Source: a virus
Lineage: Duplodnaviria > Caudoviricetes
Strand: one strand, 5' to 3'
IMG/VR virus record: IMGVR_UViG_3300030372_002743
Location: 1 to 24,265 of that record
DNA length: 24,265 nucleotides
Part shown: positions 10,891-24,265 of the stretch, piece after piece
How positions within the stretch are numbered: position 1 is the stretch's first letter
Layout: every line of letters starts with the position of its first letter
Notes under the pieces: generated by a model
The model's database searches: none
The model's input: the letters and a program-made list of their open reading frames with translations, nothing else
Told to the model about the DNA's origin: nothing
Translations under genes and position numbers: made by a program

Positions 10891-13800
10891 ATGGCTTTAG
10901 CAAAACAGTTTTATTCTAGCTTTAAGAGTTACAATGGCTGGGAATACTATCTAGAAATATGGGTAGAAAGTTATTCAGGTAGTGCCTCAGAAATATCTTT
11001 AGGAGTATCAGGACCAGTTATAACTTATGGAACTGATCAACAAGATAGATTTAGCCCAATTTTATCTAGTAAACTAGAGTTGCCTTTTATGGTAACTAAT
11101 ACTACTGAAGATGCTTTTATAAAAAACATTAGAGAGCAATTTAATGAAAGAGATGTTTATATTCACTTATATAGAGCTAATTCTAGTGATTATAGTTCAG
11201 TAGCTCCATTATGGTCAGGTTATGTTTTAATGGATTTGAGTGCATCTCCTGATTTATATTATCCTTATCCAGTTACATTAACTGCAATTGATGGTTTAGC
11301 ATTATTAAAAGAAATTGATTTTGTACAATCTGGAACAGCTGGAAGTTATAGTGATTCTGATATGTATTCTAGCAATGGAAGGTTTACTTATTGGATTAAA
11401 GAAATATTATTAAAAACTGGAGCTTCAACAACTACACAAGGATCAACACAAGATTATAAATTTACTACTGCTATAAATTGGTTTAATAGTGTAATGCCTA
11501 CTATAACACAATCTACTGATCCATTTTATCAAACTAAGTGTGGAACTAAAATGTTTTTTAGTAAAGATTCTGATGGTAATTTTACTGTTGTTAATTCTTA
11601 TGATGTTTTACTAAATTTATTAAAACATTGGGGTGCTAGAATTATATATTGGAAACATATATTTTATATTGTTCAAATTCAAGAATACAACACAGCAGAA
11701 TCTGGAACTTATGCAAATCCTGACAACATAAATACTAGAACTTATACTAAAACTGGTGCTTTTGATAGTTCTTCTGATAATTTAGGTGATTCATATTGGA
11801 CAAGATATAATTTATTAATTGATGATGTAACTGGAGGAATACAAAAATTAGCTGGAAGTCAATTTAATTATTTACCTCAATTAAAAAGAACACAAGCTAA
11901 CTTTTTAGATTATGGGAATAAAAATTATTTTGGAGGTATTCCATTTGATTTAACTACTGGAGAAACTGATGTAATTTTACAAAGTACATTTGAAGATGTT
12001 AGTTCTGATGGTGCTATGCTTTTAATTATACCTTTGGATGTAACAATAGTTCAACAATATAATGGCTCACTTGATTTAAGAATATTTTTTAGATTATTTA
12101 TTACTGATGGTGCTACAACTTATTACTTACGTTATGACGCAACAAATACTCCAAATTATTATTGGGAAAGTAGCACAACTGTTAACTTAAATAATAATCA
12201 AACTAGATGGTATAGCAAATTAGATAATTTAATAGGAACTCAAACAAAAATTGGTTTTCATGAATTGATAGAATTTAAAGATTCTGGAGGCTCTGCACTT
12301 AATTTAAGTGGTGAATGGAAAGCCTATATTGACATTGATAATTGGGTGCAAAATATTGCAAGTAGTTTTTATTTCTATGCGTCTGTAAGTGGTACGGGTG
12401 GGCAAAGTACTAAAGTATATGTACCATCTTTGACAACTGTTTATTATACAAATACACTAAATTCTAATTATCAAACTACTATAAATACAGTTGTATTAGG
12501 AACAACAAATTCACAAATTACTGGGATTAACACTTATCCAAATAATAATATAATTAGTTACCAAACATCTTTAAATATAAATCCATTTGAAGGTAAATTT
12601 TTAATTGTTAACACAAGTGCAAGTGGAGCTATTTATGGAAGTCAAGTAATGATAACTCCATTAACTACAACAAGTGATGTTGAGGTTGTTGATTTTGGTG
12701 ATTTAATATGGGGTGATACATTATTTGCAAGTTCTGAAGGTAGTTTAAAAGTTTGGAATGGAAGTGCTTTTGTCAAATCAAATGTGACTGGAACATGGGG
12801 GTTAGGCTCAACAAGTGGCTCTAATAGTTTTACAGAAATGCTATTAAGTGAATATTTGTTTGGACAAACAAAAGTTGTAGAAAGTCCCTCAATGCAATTA
12901 GTAATAGGTGAAACAAATAAAAATCAAAATGATGGAAGTGGCTCTAGACCAAATTATGTAAATCCAATAGGTAGATTAAAAGGATATAGTGCTACTGGTA
13001 CAACTCCTTATTATATATTTAAAAGCGGCTCATTTCATTTACTAAGAGATGAAATTGATTATGAAGGTTATCAAATTATAAGAAACACAGAAACAGTAAC
13101 AAAAACAGATAACATTATTATTGGTCCAGATGTGCTACAAGATAAAACAAATAAGATAAGTCAAAAAACTCCTGTCTCAAATACTTTAGCTGCAAAACTT
13201 ACTCAAAATAGTTTTATCTCTACTATATCATCAACTAAAAGTGCTTATGGAAATGACATTGCTGTTAATGGTATTTTTGCTAGTGATTCTAGTTGGACAA
13301 AAGGAACTGGTTGGAGCATAGCAAGTAATAAAGCATCTTTTTCACCAACTGGCTCTACAAGTGATATTAAACAAGATACTTTAACAAACGCATTAACATA
13401 TAAAATAACACTATCTGTTTCTGTTAGTGCTGGAGGTTTATCTGTAAAAGCTGGTAGTTCTGGAAATGAAACTGTTTTAAGTACATCTGGAACTTATGAT
13501 ATTTTTTCAACTTGTTCTGGCTCAACTGATGTAATTTTTGAAGCAAGTGCAGCTTTTGAAGGTTATATAGAAAAAGTAGTTGTAAAACAACAAGTGCCGA
13601 TTACTAGCATAAATATTAATGCTATTGGTGCTGCGGTGTTTAAAGCTAATGATGTATTAAATATTGCAAATTTTGATAGTAATGAAATAAATGAATTTAC
13701 AGTCAGCTCAGATCAAGGAGCAAGTGATACTAGTATTGCTGTAACAAGTAAACTAATAACAGAGGATATACCTGAAGGCTCAATTATACTTATAAATCAA

Positions 13801-16800
13801 AATGACTTAGCTGCACAATACCAAAACAAAACAAAAGGAACAGTTGCTGGATTTACTATTGATGCTGATGGTATTGCAAAAGGTGGTGTTGAAATAACTG
13901 GTTGGCTTGATAGTGATACAATGAGTGGTGCTACTGCAAATAATGTTCCAACAGCCGAAAGTGTAAAAGCCTATGTAGATGCCCAAGTTGGAAGTTCAGA
14001 TACATTACAAGAGGTTACTGATAATGGAAATACAACAACTAACAGTATAATGATTGGTAGTTCATCAAGTCCAAGTCAAAAATTAGAAGTTGAAGGAGGA
14101 AGGATTAAAATTTCATCATCTGGGACACAACAATTATTGTTTGGAACTGATGCAACTATTGAATTTGGCTCTGATAGCAATATTCAAGTAAGAAGAACAT
14201 CTTCAGATTTACAATTTAAAACTGGAGGCTCAGAAAAAATGCGTCTTACATCTGATGGTGATTTGGCTATTGGTCGGACTACTGCAAGTGAAAAGTTAGA
14301 TGTTCAAGGTAACATAATATTAAGAGGAACAAACAATCTAACAATAGGTTCAACAAGTTCTGGTGGTGATTTTAGTTTGTCAAGTGGCATAAGGGGTTAC
14401 AAATTTGCAAACAACAATGGTGATTTATTGACTTTGTCTTCTGATGGAAATTTAACAATAACTGGCTCTGGAAGTTTTCAAGGTCAAGTAACAATACCAG
14501 CTACTCCAGTTGCCTCAACAGATGCTGCAAGTAAAAGTTACGTTGATGCTCAAGTTGGAAGTTCAGATACGCTTGAAGAAGTTACAGCAAATGGAAATAG
14601 TACCTCTTATGGAATATCATTTACAAGTACAAATTTTAGTGTTGGTCAAGCTAAAATAGGATTAAAAGCTTCAAATAACCTAGTTTATCTAAGAGGTGGA
14701 AGTGGTGGATTATTTTTACAGAATGGGGATGGAACTGCTGCACATTTATTAAATAGTTCTGGAAATCAAATTTTTGAGGTAGGTAGTTCAGAAAAAATGC
14801 GTCTTACATCTAGCGGAAATATTGGTATAAATACGTCTAACCCAGATAAACTTTTAGAAATTTTTAATGGTGATTTAAAAATTGGTGATAATTCAAATAG
14901 TGCAAGAAGAATATTTTTTGAAAGAAATACTTTAGACATAGGAAGTTTAGGAACAAATAATTCTGCTTTAACATTAAAAGCTTTAGACAATAATGATATA
15001 TCATTGGAAGACGATTCTGGAAATGGGTTAATTGTAAAAAATGGCGGTAACGTACTTATTGGAACAACAACTGATGATGGCTCAAATAAACTGCAAGTTA
15101 ATGGAGGTGCTAAAATTAGTGATACTAATGGCTCGGCTTTCATAAGTGGTGGTAATATAAATTTAACTGATTCTGGTGGAGGAACTATGTTGATTTTTGA
15201 TTCTTCTAGTGGTGATGGCGTTGTTAGATGGGAAGATGGTAATACCCAAAAATGGGATATGGGAAGAGATAATACCGATAATAGTTGGGCATTATCTAAC
15301 ACAACTGGTTTAGGAAGTAGTAATGTTTTAACTTTTGCACACTCAACAGGTAATGCAACATTTAGCGGTCAAGTAACTGGAACAACTGCAAGATTTAATG
15401 GGAGTACAACTGATTGTTTGACTATTGCTTCAAGTTCAGGTGCTTCATATGGTTTAAAAATATTTAACAATTCTAATACAGATACATCAAGTATAATAAA
15501 TCATTATTCTGGCTCTTTAGTTTTTGGGACAAGTAACACAGAAAGAATGAGAATTTCAGATTCAGGAAATCTACTTTTGGGAACAACAACTGATAGTAGT
15601 GAAAAGCTACAAGTTGCTGGTAATTTATTATTGAAAAACACATCTAATACAAACTTATTATTAAGAAATGCTGGTGGCTCTAATAATGCTTTAATTTTCT
15701 GGCAAAAATCAACTGGGGCTGATGAATGGTATTTTGGTCAAACTAATGAAAATGACGATATTAAAATATATAATTATGACAATGACTCATTTCATGTTAT
15801 ATTTAGAAAAAGTGGCAACACAGAATTTCCAGATAACGCAAAGATAGGTATTGGTAGTGATAATGATTTACAGTTTTATCATGACGGCTCTGATAGTTAT
15901 ATAAGGGCATATAACAATGATTTAATAATCATGCAAGACACTGCTGACAAAGATATTATATTTAAGGCAGACGATGGTAGTGGTGGTCAAGAAACATATT
16001 TCTTTTTAGATGGTAGCGCTAGCGGTGGAAATCCAGTAACAATATTTCCAGATAGTAGCACGTTAAGGTTTGGTACTGGTGGAGACTTGCAATTATATCA
16101 CGATGGAGCAAATAGTTATGTAGCACAAACTGGAACTGGTGATTTGTACATAAGAAATACAACTGACGACAAAGATATAATACTTCAGTCAGATGACAAC
16201 AGTGGAGGTGTTACAGCTTACATTACTTTAGATGGTAGTCAAGGTTTTACAACAGTGCAAAAGAATATTCGTTTTAACGATAGTGTAAGAGCTGATTTTG
16301 GAACTGGAAGTGACCTTAGAATAGAGCATGACGGTGATCATGCTTATTTAGCTAATCTTACAGGTGATTATTATTTTGAGCAAAAAGCAGATGATAAAGA
16401 TATAATATTTACTTGCGACAACGGATCAGGAGGAACTACATCCTATCTTCGTTTAGACGGAAGCCAAACAACTGTAAACGTATATAAAAACTTATTAATA
16501 AATACTACAACTGATGCTGGTGTTCCTTTATACGTTAATGGAGTTATTAGAGCTGTTGGTGGTGGAATACAAGCTGCACAAGATTATGGATTTACGTTAA
16601 ATGACGAAGCTGGAAATAATAGGTATGGATTAAAATTTGGGGCGGCTGGAACAGTAGGTGGCTCTAATTTATTAATGCTAACTAATAGAAGTTTACATTC
16701 TGCAACTGGTGGAGGTATGGTAACTATTGGAGGAAATAATTCAACATCTGGTGTTAGTGAAGTAGAAATCGCAAGGTTTGATCCAAGAGTTGCCGCAACA

Positions 16801-16983
16801 AGTGGAAATCAAAAGAAAGTAACTTTAGATGCTGTATTAGAATTAACACAACAAACTGCTCCAGCAAATCCAGCTACTGGAAAATCAATTATTTGGATGG
16901 ATTCATCGGACGGAGCAATTAAAGTAAAAATAAATTATGGGGGAACAGTAGTCACTAGAACTATTGCCCTATTTAGTGACTAA
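10891..16983 (+). CDS. large tail-tip / tail-fibre (receptor-binding) protein, 2030 aa
   Basis: Directly after tape measure; Ser/Thr/Gly-rich; fibre-type repeats (KAYVDAQ, EKMRLTSxGN, DLQxYHDG). Confidence 0.85.
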   Translation: MALAKQFYSSFKSYNGWEYYLEIWVESYSGSASEISLGVSGPVITYGTDQQDRFSPILSSKLELPFMVTNTTEDAFIKNIREQFNERDVYIHLYRANSSDYSSVAPLWSGYVLMDLSASPDLYYPYPVTLTAIDGLALLKEIDFVQSGTAGSYSDSDMYSSNGRFTYWIKEILLKTGASTTTQGSTQDYKFTTAINWFNSVMPTITQSTDPFYQTKCGTKMFFSKDSDGNFTVVNSYDVLLNLLKHWGARIIYWKHIFYIVQIQEYNTAESGTYANPDNINTRTYTKTGAFDSSSDNLGDSYWTRYNLLIDDVTGGIQKLAGSQFNYLPQLKRTQANFLDYGNKNYFGGIPFDLTTGETDVILQSTFEDVSSDGAMLLIIPLDVTIVQQYNGSLDLRIFFRLFITDGATTYYLRYDATNTPNYYWESSTTVNLNNNQTRWYSKLDNLIGTQTKIGFHELIEFKDSGGSALNLSGEWKAYIDIDNWVQNIASSFYFYASVSGTGGQSTKVYVPSLTTVYYTNTLNSNYQTTINTVVLGTTNSQITGINTYPNNNIISYQTSLNINPFEGKFLIVNTSASGAIYGSQVMITPLTTTSDVEVVDFGDLIWGDTLFASSEGSLKVWNGSAFVKSNVTGTWGLGSTSGSNSFTEMLLSEYLFGQTKVVESPSMQLVIGETNKNQNDGSGSRPNYVNPIGRLKGYSATGTTPYYIFKSGSFHLLRDEIDYEGYQIIRNTETVTKTDNIIIGPDVLQDKTNKISQKTPVSNTLAAKLTQNSFISTISSTKSAYGNDIAVNGIFASDSSWTKGTGWSIASNKASFSPTGSTSDIKQDTLTNALTYKITLSVSVSAGGLSVKAGSSGNETVLSTSGTYDIFSTCSGSTDVIFEASAAFEGYIEKVVVKQQVPITSININAIGAAVFKANDVLNIANFDSNEINEFTVSSDQGASDTSIAVTSKLITEDIPEGSIILINQNDLAAQYQNKTKGTVAGFTIDADGIAKGGVEITGWLDSDTMSGATANNVPTAESVKAYVDAQVGSSDTLQEVTDNGNTTTNSIMIGSSSSPSQKLEVEGGRIKISSSGTQQLLFGTDATIEFGSDSNIQVRRTSSDLQFKTGGSEKMRLTSDGDLAIGRTTASEKLDVQGNIILRGTNNLTIGSTSSGGDFSLSSGIRGYKFANNNGDLLTLSSDGNLTITGSGSFQGQVTIPATPVASTDAASKSYVDAQVGSSDTLEEVTANGNSTSYGISFTSTNFSVGQAKIGLKASNNLVYLRGGSGGLFLQNGDGTAAHLLNSSGNQIFEVGSSEKMRLTSSGNIGINTSNPDKLLEIFNGDLKIGDNSNSARRIFFERNTLDIGSLGTNNSALTLKALDNNDISLEDDSGNGLIVKNGGNVLIGTTTDDGSNKLQVNGGAKISDTNGSAFISGGNINLTDSGGGTMLIFDSSSGDGVVRWEDGNTQKWDMGRDNTDNSWALSNTTGLGSSNVLTFAHSTGNATFSGQVTGTTARFNGSTTDCLTIASSSGASYGLKIFNNSNTDTSSIINHYSGSLVFGTSNTERMRISDSGNLLLGTTTDSSEKLQVAGNLLLKNTSNTNLLLRNAGGSNNALIFWQKSTGADEWYFGQTNENDDIKIYNYDNDSFHVIFRKSGNTEFPDNAKIGIGSDNDLQFYHDGSDSYIRAYNNDLIIMQDTADKDIIFKADDGSGGQETYFFLDGSASGGNPVTIFPDSSTLRFGTGGDLQLYHDGANSYVAQTGTGDLYIRNTTDDKDIILQSDDNSGGVTAYITLDGSQGFTTVQKNIRFNDSVRADFGTGSDLRIEHDGDHAYLANLTGDYYFEQKADDKDIIFTCDNGSGGTTSYLRLDGSQTTVNVYKNLLINTTTDAGVPLYVNGVIRAVGGGIQAAQDYGFTLNDEAGNNRYGLKFGAAGTVGGSNLLMLTNRSLHSATGGGMVTIGGNNSTSGVSEVEIARFDPRVAATSGNQKKVTLDAVLELTQQTAPANPATGKSIIWMDSSDGAIKVKINYGGTVVTRTIALFSD
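13960..15080 (+). repeat. degenerate duplicated ~190-aa fibre module
   Basis: Exact DNA repeats CAAGTTGGAAGTTCAGATAC (13984-14003, 14551-14570) and TCAGAAAAAATGCGTCTTACATCT (14230-14253, 14788-14811); module edges approximate. Confidence 0.75.
15832..16464 (+). repeat. three tandem ~75-aa repeats in fibre C-terminal region
   Basis: Units start at ~15832, 16051, 16279; consensus G..DL..(Y/E)HDG..(S/A)Y......D......DKDII...D..SGG...Y..LDGS. Confidence 0.85.
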
Positions 16984-18540: not shown

Positions 18541-19767
18541 ATGGAATCCAAGTATTTAGAATATTTAGATGAAATAATAGAACATTTTTGGAATGGCAAT
18601 GGTTATCAAGCTATTGCTAAACATCTTATTGAAAAATATAATTTAAACGTTAAAAAAGAAACTCTTAGGCATAGGATAAAAGATATTATACAATATGAGA
18701 TAGCTGACAAAGAAGTTATTGAAGAAAACTTAAAATTAGCTAAAAAAAGCCAAAAACAAGCTGACCTTAATAGAATAAAAAACAAATCATTTAGAGAGCA
18801 TTCTAGGCTTGAAAATGCTTTAGTTGAATACAATAAGGCTTTGATTGATATTCTTAAAACAGAGAGCCTTAAAACAACAATAAAACAGCATAAATCAAAA
18901 GGTAAACAAGCTATCATTGTTCAAATAGCCGATACACACTTTAACGAGTTAGTTGACTTAAAAAATAATAAATATGATTTTGAGGTTGCATCTAAAAGGT
19001 TGCAAAAGTTTGCACATCACATAAAAGAATATGCTAGTTTTTATAATGTTAATGAAATATTAATTGCAATAACTGGTGATTTGTTAAACTCAGATAGAAG
19101 GCTTGACGAAAAACTTGCAATGAGTACAAATAGAGCTAAAGCTACTTTTTTAGGTGTTCATTTATTAAAACATTTTATTTTAGATTTAAATAGCATTGCT
19201 AATGTAAGTGTTGGTTGTGTTTCTGGAAATGAATCAAGAGCTTATGAGTTGGGCTGGGTTGATATTGTTGCAACTGATAATTATGATTTTACAATATTTG
19301 AAATACTTAGAATGTTGTTGCCAGATATTAATTTTATTACATCTGGAGGATTAGAATTGGTTGTTGAGGTTAATGGGCATAAATGCCTAATAATTCATGG
19401 GCATCAACTCGGTAACATGCAAAATGATAAAATTGCTAAAGTTATTAGTAAATATGCAAGAAATGGAATAATATTAGATTTTATGATTTGTGGTCATTTA
19501 CATGAAACTAAGATTACAGATATGTTTGCAAGGTCAAGTTCATTAGTAGGGGCTAATGCTTATAGTGAAAATGCTTTATTATTAAGCTCTAAGGCGGCAC
19601 AAAACATATATATTATGAAAGATAATGAAAGGCATGATATAAGAATTGATTTGCAACACACTAAAGGATTTAAAGGCTATGCAATAAATAAAGAACTATC
19701 AGCTTATAATGCTAAAAGTTTAGATAAAACACATAAAAAACAAACAGTTTTTAAAATTGTTATATAA
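18541..19767 (+). CDS. calcineurin-like metallophosphoesterase with N-terminal helical/coiled-coil region
   Basis: ADTH, TGDLLN, SGNE, HGH, GHLH motifs in canonical order. Confidence 0.82.
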   Translation: MESKYLEYLDEIIEHFWNGNGYQAIAKHLIEKYNLNVKKETLRHRIKDIIQYEIADKEVIEENLKLAKKSQKQADLNRIKNKSFREHSRLENALVEYNKALIDILKTESLKTTIKQHKSKGKQAIIVQIADTHFNELVDLKNNKYDFEVASKRLQKFAHHIKEYASFYNVNEILIAITGDLLNSDRRLDEKLAMSTNRAKATFLGVHLLKHFILDLNSIANVSVGCVSGNESRAYELGWVDIVATDNYDFTIFEILRMLLPDINFITSGGLELVVEVNGHKCLIIHGHQLGNMQNDKIAKVISKYARNGIILDFMICGHLHETKITDMFARSSSLVGANAYSENALLLSSKAAQNIYIMKDNERHDIRIDLQHTKGFKGYAINKELSAYNAKSLDKTHKKQTVFKIVI

Positions 19768-19773
19768 TTTTTA

Positions 19774-19781
19774 TATATTTG
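19774..19781 (+). promoter_or_regulatory. Bacteroidota-type -7 promoter box (TAnnTTTG)
   Basis: TATATTTG, exact consensus match, intergenic; -33 box not clear. Confidence 0.55.
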
Positions 19782-19784
19782 GCT

Positions 19785-19858
19785 GTTTTTTTAAGTTTGA
19801 CAGTAATAGTTTTTGTAATATTTGTTTGAAAAAGGCTCTCGCATGAGGGTCTTTTTTT
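19785..19858 (+). ncRNA. candidate ~70-nt antisense small RNA
   Basis: Bounded by promoter box and terminator; no ORF; 19816-19829 is the exact reverse complement of 19947-19960. Confidence 0.5.
19829..19858 (+). terminator. intrinsic terminator (end of late operon and/or sRNA)
   Basis: AAAAA-GGCTCTC-GCAT-GAGGGTC-TTTTTTT; G:U pairs favour the + strand. Confidence 0.8.
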
Positions 19859-19933
19859 ATTTATATATATCTAGTAAATTAAAATAAATGTAAAGTTTTT
19901 TACAATTTATGCTATTTATGTTAAAAAGTATTA

Positions 19934-19941
19934 TATCTTTG
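19934..19941 (+). promoter_or_regulatory. Bacteroidota-type -7 promoter box for early operon
   Basis: TATCTTTG, 35 nt upstream of the ATG at 19976, just after a terminator. Confidence 0.7.
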
Positions 19942-19975
19942 TACAATCAAACAAATATTATTAAAAGAATATATT

Positions 19976-20197
19976 ATGAAAATAGAAATTAGAGATTTAG
20001 AAAACTATAAAAATTATTTAGACATTCTAAAAGAATTAAATTTAGATTATTCGGATAATGTGTCAAATAGATATGAATATGCTAAAAAATATGAACAAAA
20101 CGAACACTTAGTTTTTAAAGTAGATAAATCTGAATTTATAGATTGTTTAGAAATTTACGAAATTAATTCTGAAAAATATTATTATAAAATTTCTTAA
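19976..20197 (+). CDS. hypothetical protein (first early gene)
   Basis: 73 aa, very AT-rich, follows promoter. Confidence 0.65.
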   Translation: MKIEIRDLENYKNYLDILKELNLDYSDNVSNRYEYAKKYEQNEHLVFKVDKSEFIDCLEIYEINSEKYYYKIS

Positions 20198-20199
20198 TT

Positions 20200-20418
20200 A
20201 TGAAACAGCACATTGTAAAACATAAACAAAATAAGAAAGAGTATTTACTAAACTCAGTTGAATTAGATAAGTTTTTTAAAATGCAAGATATAGAAAACTA
20301 TACAATAAAAGATAAATTAACAGCTCAAGAAATATTAGGTAACGTTATTGCATTTATAACAGTTGCAATTGGATCAATAGGTTTACTAATGTTAGGAGCT
20401 ATAATGGATAAACTATAA
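20200..20418 (+). CDS. small protein with C-terminal transmembrane helix
   Basis: ILGNVIAFITVAIGSIGLLMLGAIM. Confidence 0.7.
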   Translation: MKQHIVKHKQNKKEYLLNSVELDKFFKMQDIENYTIKDKLTAQEILGNVIAFITVAIGSIGLLMLGAIMDKL

Positions 20419-20949: not shown

Positions 20950-21324
20950 ATGACAAAAAAAGAACTAGCTAAAATCTATAAAGATTACAATTTAAGTAAA
21001 GATGATATTTATCAAGATAGAAGAGGTTTTGTAATAATAACAAGGTCTGGAATTGAAAAAATACAATTTGACCAAAACATTAAAATAGAATATGATGTAA
21101 TTAAATGTGACAAAGACAATGTAGTAATAAAAGCTACAAGTTATTTACAAGATCAAGATGACTGGCTTAAGCAAATAGAAACATTTGGTAGTGCTACTGA
21201 CAAAAATTGCATACAACATTTTAAAGTTGAAATAGCTGAAAAAAGAGCTAAGGCAAGATGTATTGTTCAAACAATAGGCTTTACTAACACATATTCAGAA
21301 GATGAATTAAAACATCAGCCATAA
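20950..21324 (+). CDS. conserved-looking phage protein, possible Rad52/Sak-like annealing protein
   Basis: IITRSGIEKI, ETFGSA, AEKRAKAR, YSEDE; fold call is tentative. Confidence 0.45.
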   Translation: MTKKELAKIYKDYNLSKDDIYQDRRGFVIITRSGIEKIQFDQNIKIEYDVIKCDKDNVVIKATSYLQDQDDWLKQIETFGSATDKNCIQHFKVEIAEKRAKARCIVQTIGFTNTYSEDELKHQP

Positions 21325-21716
21325 TGATTACAAGAGATAAAATAATTAGTCATGCTTTAAACATAAGTTGTAAAATTTATAACGCTGATAAAAATTATGT
21401 TATTAGTAACAATAATAGATTTTCTACAACAATAAAAGCAAAAAGAATGTTTATTTATTATTTATATGAATTTATGGAAATTAAGCACAATGGTATGAAA
21501 AAATACATTAAAGACATAAATCATGCATCAAGCATTCATCATGTAAATAAATTTAAGTTTGAAAAAGATAATTACAATGACGTTAAAAAATGTTTTAGTG
21601 AATTTATGACAGAAATGCGAAGATTTAACGTTTATGGTGGCGGTTTTTATGAAAAAAGAAAAGAAATTAAAAAATTATTAGAAGAACTAAACAAAGTAAA
21701 AAATGAAAAAAATTAA
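21324..21716 (+). CDS. DnaA C-terminal-like HTH protein
   Basis: AKRMFIYYL...INHASSIHHVNK resembles DnaA domain IV (AR..amYL...dHtTvih). Confidence 0.55.
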   Translation: MITRDKIISHALNISCKIYNADKNYVISNNNRFSTTIKAKRMFIYYLYEFMEIKHNGMKKYIKDINHASSIHHVNKFKFEKDNYNDVKKCFSEFMTEMRRFNVYGGGFYEKRKEIKKLLEELNKVKNEKN

Positions 21717-21981
21717 CATTACTAAAGATCAAGTTAAAACTCAAAGAGAGGCTATAATGTGGCATCTAAAAACTTATGGTAAAATAACAAGCTGGGAGGC
21801 AATTAAAGAATATGGTGCAACTAGGCTTTCTGACATTATATTTAGGTTAAAAAATGAGGGTTATAATATTAAAACAAATCTAGTAAAAAAAGAAAATAGG
21901 TTTGGAAATATTACAACAATTGCTAAATATGAATATTCTATGCCAACTTATTATGAACAAGAACAAATTATTTGGGGATGA
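21703..21981 (+). CDS. winged HTH protein (HTH_39-like)
   Basis: TQ..IMWHL...GKITSWEA...YGATRLSDIIFRLK..GYNI. Confidence 0.8.
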   Translation: MKKINITKDQVKTQREAIMWHLKTYGKITSWEAIKEYGATRLSDIIFRLKNEGYNIKTNLVKKENRFGNITTIAKYEYSMPTYYEQEQIIWG

Positions 21982-23873: not shown

Positions 23874-24153
23874 AAATGATGACATTTTAATAGCTGAGGA
23901 CTGGTGGTTAAAACCTTCTTTGTTACCTACAAATGTTTGGAGTTATGACAAGGGTAAAAATGGTGGTTATGTTGCTGACTTTGCTAGTGTAGGTAGAGAT
24001 TTGCGATTAATAGGCACAAAAAAACAAATAACAGAATGGTGGCGTAAAACTGGTGTTGAGGTTAAAGATATTTGGGATGCTGAACTTACTGAGCAACATA
24101 AAGAGCTATATGAAAGAAATTGTAAACAAGTAGTTGTAATAAGATTAATTTAA
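23866..24153 (+). CDS. hypothetical protein
   Basis: 95 aa, Trp-rich, overlaps both neighbours. Confidence 0.7.
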   Translation: MNENDDILIAEDWWLKPSLLPTNVWSYDKGKNGGYVADFASVGRDLRLIGTKKQITEWWRKTGVEVKDIWDAELTEQHKELYERNCKQVVVIRLI

Positions 24154-24265
24154 TGAAAACAGAAAGATATTTAAATAGTGTTATTGAATTATTAGATGTA
24201 ATGTCTATTGAATTAAAAGAAAAAGAAAAAAATTGTGTAGATGGTAGAATGTTAATTAGAATAGG
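24153..24265 (+). CDS. hypothetical protein, truncated by window end
   Basis: TAATG coupling; MKTERYLNSVIELLDVMSIELKEKEK... open to the end. Confidence 0.6.
   Translation, partial: MKTERYLNSVIELLDVMSIELKEKEKNCVDGRMLIRI

Follow-up and report, generated by a model that had tools for sequence, protein, structure and literature searches.

A candidate small RNA complementary to early-operon leaders at the late/early junction of a tailed-phage family

Genome, relatives and layout of the junction

The window, meaning the whole 24,265-nt stretch of viral DNA that was analysed (IMG/VR record IMGVR_UViG_3300030372_002743), covers most of a small tailed-phage genome whose recognisable genes all lie on one strand. 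Gene order runs from terminase to tail, holin, endolysin and a phosphoesterase/exonuclease-like gene ending at 19767, after which an early block encodes a methylase and a replication initiator. The 2030-aa tail protein at 10891-16983 had no PHROG match. An open frame spans both ends of the window, and the possibility that the window is a complete circle was considered and rejected because relatives are longer by about 2 kb. Four relatives checked (L243-L246) carry this extra DNA at the right end, where, on translations judged by eye, it appears to finish with an HNH-like gene. The last open frame of the window (24153-24265) is unlike what these four carry at that place, and we take the genes that continue after it in them to be NinB-like, VRR-NUC and HNH. 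Most of these relatives begin some 270 nt ahead of the small terminase gene, and this shared start point together with the right end suggests fixed genome ends.

No similar DNA was found among cultured phages; the best protein matches there had 44-45 % identity and came from other hosts. GTDB held no close relative, prophages included, and its single distant match was 28 % over part of the protein. A Bacteroidota host is likely, as judged from promoter and leader style only (TAnnTTTG boxes; A-rich, G-poor leaders). Passages of PMC6847099 describe, for Bacteroidota, a TAnnTTTG-type -7 box lying 4-5 nt from the start site and translation initiation driven by upstream adenines. The junction and the early block contain the following features.

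18541-19767, plus strand: last gene before the junction, encoding a 408-aa metallophosphoesterase/exonuclease-like protein (phrog_284, E 3e-59; Metallophos_2 match weak, below cut-off)
19774-19781, plus strand: P1, a Bacteroidota-type -7 box with a predicted start at 19786 or 19787
19786-19859, plus strand: predicted RNA of about 74 nt, with a weakly structured U-rich 5' part and a terminator hairpin
19786-19797, plus strand: 5' seed module, without a partner in the window's own first leader
19792-19799, plus strand: an extra TAnnTTTG inside the unit
19803-19808, plus strand: minor seed, paired in the co-fold with 19972-19977, including the AU of the start codon
19810-19829, plus strand: main seed, 20 nt at 90 % against 19947-19966 and exact over 19816-19829
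19828-19859, plus strand: intrinsic-terminator-like hairpin (hairpin proper 19828-19857) and U tract
19899-19924, no strand assigned: dyad over the upstream part of P2
19934-19941, plus strand: P2, the early-operon -7 box, after an AT-rich tract, with a predicted start at 19946 or 19947
19946-19978, plus strand: the predicted target, comprising the A-rich leader of the first early gene and its start codon
19976-20197, plus strand: first early gene, 73 aa, a hypervariable slot
20200-20418, plus strand: early gene conserved within the near clade, encoding 72 aa that include a hydrophobic stretch at the C terminus
21703-21981, plus strand: gene for a winged-helix protein (HTH_39, E 8e-13)

Relatives were collected with the 408-aa gene (18541-19767) as anchor, in two sets that sample overlapping populations. 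In the first, 56 of 80 viral loci were used (59-96 % identity); six of these end too early and L048 has no leader, leaving 49, which with the window make 50. Two P1 calls in this set were placed by hand. The second set began with 80 metagenome loci, of which 64 were parsed and 50 remained without exact duplicates, the 16 dropped loci being four contig ends, five without a P2 call and seven without an ATG call. Absence of P1 was never a reason for dropping a junction in either set, and the total was 100 junctions, the window and 99 relatives. Viewed by eye, L057-L080 (45-50 % identity) did not have an apparent junction layout of this kind. Scanning viral contigs for an exact 17-nt sequence gave 61 matches, and by eye the unit was seen only in L123, which is on the same contig as L004. 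Neither scanning for the P2 pattern nor searching with the second early gene added contigs to those already collected.

The order of P1 box, U-rich stretch, hairpin with U tail, spacer, P2 box and A-rich leader was kept across the 100 junctions. TAnnTTTG alone is uninformative, with 41 occurrences in the window and 48 expected. A P1 box (TAnn[TA]TTG) began 0-11 nt from the stop codon, counted from its first base, in 96 of 100 junctions versus 3 of 682 other stops; the P1 call fell on that codon in 30 junctions and 8-11 nt later in 70. The extra TAnnTTTG at 19792-19799, which the initial annotation did not list, was present in 6 of 100 junctions and is probably incidental. The hairpin at 19828-19859 was the only plus-strand terminator-like match between 17000 and 24265, and a hairpin with a U-rich tail was found in all 51 first-set junctions having sequence there. 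Hairpin energies ranged from -7 to -21 kcal/mol across the 100 junctions. Longer terminator hairpins were observed in L030-L036, L038, L040, L042, L043, L046 and L056, with an A-run and then GGGG on the loop side, the GGGG run being Shine-Dalgarno-like.

Between terminator and P2, a CTAG (19871-19874 in the window) recurred in 57 of 100 junctions. The dyad over P2 was found in 59 of 100. Its arms are 13-14 nt apart in 47 of these and 3-4 nt apart in 10, a difference of one helical turn; it is a possible protein-binding site, with the HTH_39 protein and a host factor as candidates. A dif-like site was considered for this dyad and rejected, as its spacing varies. In L048, L186, L197 and L221 an ATG follows the P2 box by 4 nt, and the first gene may be leaderless; these four were left out of the pairing counts.

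The RNA predicted from this layout has a median length of about 77 nt across the family (range 60-94). Its fold z of about -3 is largely due to the hairpin; the 5' part has a median unpaired probability of 0.59 and is scarcely more conserved than the adjoining spacer (0.86 versus 0.82). RNAalifold gave no consensus structure on 19 aligned units, probably because the stems are out of register. A plus-strand ATG of any kind, looked at for a small peptide, was present within the unit in 27 of 100 junctions. No Rfam model matched in the window or in 15 related loci, so the RNA is not assigned to any Rfam family.

Complementarity to early leaders

The boxes, the hairpin and a 14-nt complement had been described in the initial annotation, and their coordinates agree with the sequence (terminator 19828-19857 here, previously 19829-19858). 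Positions 19816-19829 are the exact reverse complement of 19947-19960, and nowhere else on the 24-kb plus strand does the U-rich stretch have a complement of 14, 13 or 12 nt. A box-to-start spacing of 4-5 nt puts the start of the early transcript at 19946-19947, so that the seed meets its first bases, and the looser pairing noted across the AUG was present in the co-fold. Interactions were scored with RNAduplex and opening costs in place of IntaRNA. The window duplex is A-U rich and modest, at -9.5 kcal/mol after opening costs; on the same basis, pairing of the main seed with the leader ranked second of 890 seeded bins genome-wide, one coding site being better, and the early leader was the best match among 33 start regions in the window. 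A chance probability under 1 % had been estimated for the 14-mer, and shuffling bore this out: when the U-rich stretch was shuffled 3000 times and set against the unshuffled downstream spacer, a helix of at least 14 arose 10 times. Under a wide null, in which the helix could form anywhere in the 223-nt spacer and palindromes were included, 111 of 1000 shuffles contained such a helix, and the window's genome alone is therefore weak evidence.

The exact 14-mer did not prove to be a conserved element. Among seven genomes with the same seed allele it was exact only in the window, and the word association gave p 0.27; L016 keeps 13 bp with one G-U, the other five have 8-11 bp with their own leader, and the four new genomes among the seven had a mean z of +0.48. 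Complementary words and their registers differed by lineage, with 13 bp across the AUG in L001 and L003, 14 bp in L017 (5' seed), 11 bp in L012, L034 and L053, and 10 bp in L041. The 5' seed module of the window has a 12-14 bp complement in the leaders of L015, L017 and L019, with a word association of 13/30 versus 1/70, and the anti-start word C[AG]TA[AG] occurred in 33 of 100 junctions versus 4.0 expected, both sets of counts ignoring relatedness. The window is a favourable case of RNA/leader pairing.

The proposed covariation of the RNA segment with the early leader was borne out across lineages, where own pairs beat both shuffles and permuted leaders. In the first set the own pair was better than dinucleotide shuffles in 45 of 50 junctions (p <=0.05 in 19), and all 17 hand-made groups were negative. 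This was replicated in the second set, with 43 of 50 better than dinucleotide shuffles and p <=0.05 in 14. When clusters were drawn from the anchor gene alone and represented by one member each, the own leader beat permuted leaders at four thresholds (9-49 clusters; median p up to 0.001). Mismatches were G-U rather than A-C at a ratio of 68:15, compared with 49:42 in shuffles under a strand-neutral alignment, and none of 100 shuffles was as extreme. The excess stayed with one member per cluster at three of four thresholds and faded at 9 clusters (median p 0.05). This indicates plus-strand RNA pairing rather than a DNA repeat; pairing was also better on the plus than on the minus strand in 67 of 100 junctions.

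Over the whole family, early leaders consist of 63 % A and 1 % G. The leader makes up a hypervariable cassette together with the first early gene, which belongs to 60 different families across the 100 junctions; even at an anchor identity of at least 97 %, pairs had the same start in 6 % of cases. The 73-aa product in the window had no PHROG or Pfam match, and no usable result came from the protein atlas for either of the first two early proteins. In some relatives the 72-aa gene (20200-20418) is the first gene, and the predicted RNA pairs across its AUG in L001-L003. Matches in the top 5 % were obtained for 19 of 50 first early starts, 33 of 306 later early starts (18/125 and 15/181) and 3 of 151 late starts; 26 of 50 first leaders were outside the top 5 %, and in several genomes (L007, L008, L029, L031) a later early start was in the top 5 % where the first leader was not. 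The A-rich first late leader was tried as a second target and rejected, with a mean z of -0.11 and 5 of 16 rows negative; the 16 rows include L047, whose ORF was called wrongly, and a gene call was lacking in 6 of 21 loci. The winged-helix protein is a candidate protein regulator, and its message, with a start region in the top 2 % of windows, is a candidate weak second RNA target. A 130-aa early protein (21324-21716), to our eye presumably resembling the DnaA C-terminal helix-turn-helix, had no DnaA-type match in Pfam.

Proposed mode of action and alternative explanations

The reading we favour, to which we give a probability of about 0.6, is that an RNA of about 75 nt would pair in trans with early leaders and start codons and lower their translation, as a delayed brake on the early phase. 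P1 and P2 would both be read by the host primary sigma factor from the onset of infection. A stable RNA would then build up and cover the leader adenines or the start codon of early messages in the infected cell; the covered adenines would be those that Bacteroidota ribosomes use instead of a Shine-Dalgarno sequence, and initiation would fall. Because the early genes abut or overlap, a block at the first start would spread by polarity and damp the whole early operon. The outcome would be delayed restraint of early expression in a phage without sign of integration. Two or three seeds per RNA could let coverage persist despite frequent swaps of the leader-plus-first-gene cassette within a population, and the 3' end of the late mRNA, which carries the same seeds, could enlarge the RNA pool late in infection.

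Of the trans-acting RNA put forward in the initial annotation, the same-strand promoter-to-terminator unit and the leader complementarity are retained, and the exact 14-mer as a conserved element is not. The accompanying idea of a switch that replaces a CI repressor found no support. No tyrosine integrase (PF00589) was found in 28 related records, HTH_3 matched in 1 of the 28, and a winged-helix protein is encoded. A missing CI is what would be expected of a phage without integration in any case, and its absence had been judged on a window missing about 2 kb of the genome end. The dyad over P2 and the winged-helix protein leave room for protein control, so the argument from a missing repressor weighs little. 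The phage may have a non-integrated carrier state.

RNA/leader fit was specific across sub-lineages (0 of 5000 permutations), whereas within populations (at least 95 %) the own leader fitted no better than those of kin (p 0.60, n 60). Maintenance of seed complementarity through sequence change, with G-U tolerated, was thus seen between lineages and not within populations. Together this indicates an RNA matched to the leader pool of its population. The same pattern would be expected if the RNA acted mainly against co-infecting kin, blocking the early leaders of incoming relatives in an already infected cell, with leader swapping as their escape; the window RNA pairs with its own leader, which ranks third of 99, to the same degree as with those of L164 and L161, and the variety of first-gene families also fits. 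We nevertheless regard this as unlikely, since near-identical RNAs within a cluster leave the own-versus-kin comparison little power, self-regulation with frequent cassette exchange predicts the same result, and an RNA matching both self and kin cannot discriminate between them. A combined form, in which a multi-seed RNA, tuned to the pool of exchangeable leader-plus-first-gene cassettes among kin, is a population-level lock that would time the phage's own early phase and silence co-infecting relatives, with cassette swapping as an arms race between RNA and leader in a phage that lacks an integrase and a CI-like repressor, is speculative and unlikely.

The stretch could instead work only as the 3' end of the late mRNA, or in cis, with read-through RNA folding the seed onto the leader and staying untranslated. 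Read-through RNA forms the same helix intramolecularly in the predicted fold (-42.4 kcal/mol), the genes are on one strand, and no TAnnTTTG box precedes the first late gene. Neither variant, however, requires the dedicated P1 box, which is present in 96 of 100 junctions and persists where it has shifted off the stop codon, and we consider both quite unlikely. A trans-acting RNA might also target host messages, or sponge a U-rich-binding protein (bS1 or RbpB-like), its fit to the phage then reflecting a start style shared by Bacteroidota. The RNA does resemble a sequence complementary to A-rich start contexts in general, and RbpB is described in part of PMC11697453 as binding RNAs of such layout. 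This is very unlikely, as the matching was lineage-specific and passed over the late starts in the same genomes, which are just as A-rich.

Arms that flank a terminator and a promoter are the anatomy of an invertible promoter, and the two arms here flank the terminator and P2. An inverted repeat acting at the DNA level without an RNA role, whether as an invertible promoter or with arms kept alike by template switching, is nonetheless largely refuted and hardly credible, given the G-U excess over A-C, the better pairing of the plus strand and the register shifts between relatives. Conserved DNA repeats and both orientations were not found among the junctions (an inverted-like pattern occurred in 1 of 100, that one with a forward P2), and a recombinase, sought as the tyrosine type, was found in 0 of 28 records. 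Chance, through a U-rich terminator leader lying beside an A-rich 5' UTR, would account for a 14-bp helix somewhere in 11 % of shuffled spacers and for the weak pairing of many relatives, but it is opposed by the shuffle, cross-lineage, strand and late-gene controls and is likewise highly improbable.

Relation to known RNAs and significance

FopS of Bacteroides thetaiotaomicron, as described in sections of PMC11697453, has a single-stranded 5' seed and an intrinsic terminator, is transcribed from a primary-sigma promoter and blocks the start of the first gene of a polycistron; one FopS sequence lies in a phage. The candidate RNA shares with FopS, as there described, the phylum of its inferred host and a predicted single-stranded 5' part with terminator behind a putative primary-sigma promoter. 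Pairing at the start region, by which FopS blocks initiation, is predicted for it and is supported by the covariation. It differs in being single copy, whereas those sections give FopS 12-15 paralogs and one conserved R1, while the phage seeds vary by lineage and have as predicted targets the phage's own early genes 120 nt away. The FopS/GibS family model, which includes the R1 seed, had no match at the junction down to E 10 and none in 15 related loci.

The c4 RNA is processed and structured. Parts of PMC12197685 describe c4 of P1/P7 as phage-encoded, 77 nt long and acting in trans on phage mRNA, and the candidate resembles it in being phage-encoded, in its similar size and in having a phage mRNA as predicted target. 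In that source, however, c4 targets an antirepressor mRNA in temperate phages, and no antirepressor was recognised, nor an integrase found, in the window; the c4 Rfam family model had no match in the window or in 15 related loci. From the same parts of PMC12197685, sar RNA of P22 is 68-69 nt long, pairs with phage mRNA and blocks translation initiation, but it has one fixed target (ant) in a temperate phage, whereas the RNA predicted here has several seeds and a swappable target cassette. P4 CI RNA, in the portion of PMC4825925 that concerns it, is processed from a primary transcript and pairs with flanking seqA and seqC, causing premature termination in lysogens. The likeness lies in an RNA encoded beside its target that would restrain the phage's own replication operon by pairing. 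In contrast to CI as so described, the phage unit lies upstream of the promoter of its target, with a box and a terminator of its own, and its predicted target is a start region; target sites on both sides were not found, the only long complement being downstream of the terminator, behind the second box.

If real, this would be a non-integrating phage family that controls its early operon by an RNA exploiting the Shine-Dalgarno-free, adenine-based initiation of Bacteroidota. Table 1 of the 2025 review PMC12197685 contains no sRNA of a Bacteroidota phage (38 further sRNAs are in a supplementary list outside that table), and a literature search whose coverage left out most subscription journals listed no title on an RNA of this kind from a phage of Bacteroidota. 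The 100 RNA/leader pairs provided by nature could serve as a panel of matched and mismatched combinations for a reporter in Flavobacterium johnsoniae, and a portable 75-nt repressor, if the reading is true, would be a useful tool in Bacteroidota.

At the other end of the window, before the first late gene, a short motif with an internal inverted repeat was observed at 47-68 and was kept in most relatives inspected, including distant ones; it is a candidate late promoter or packaging signal.
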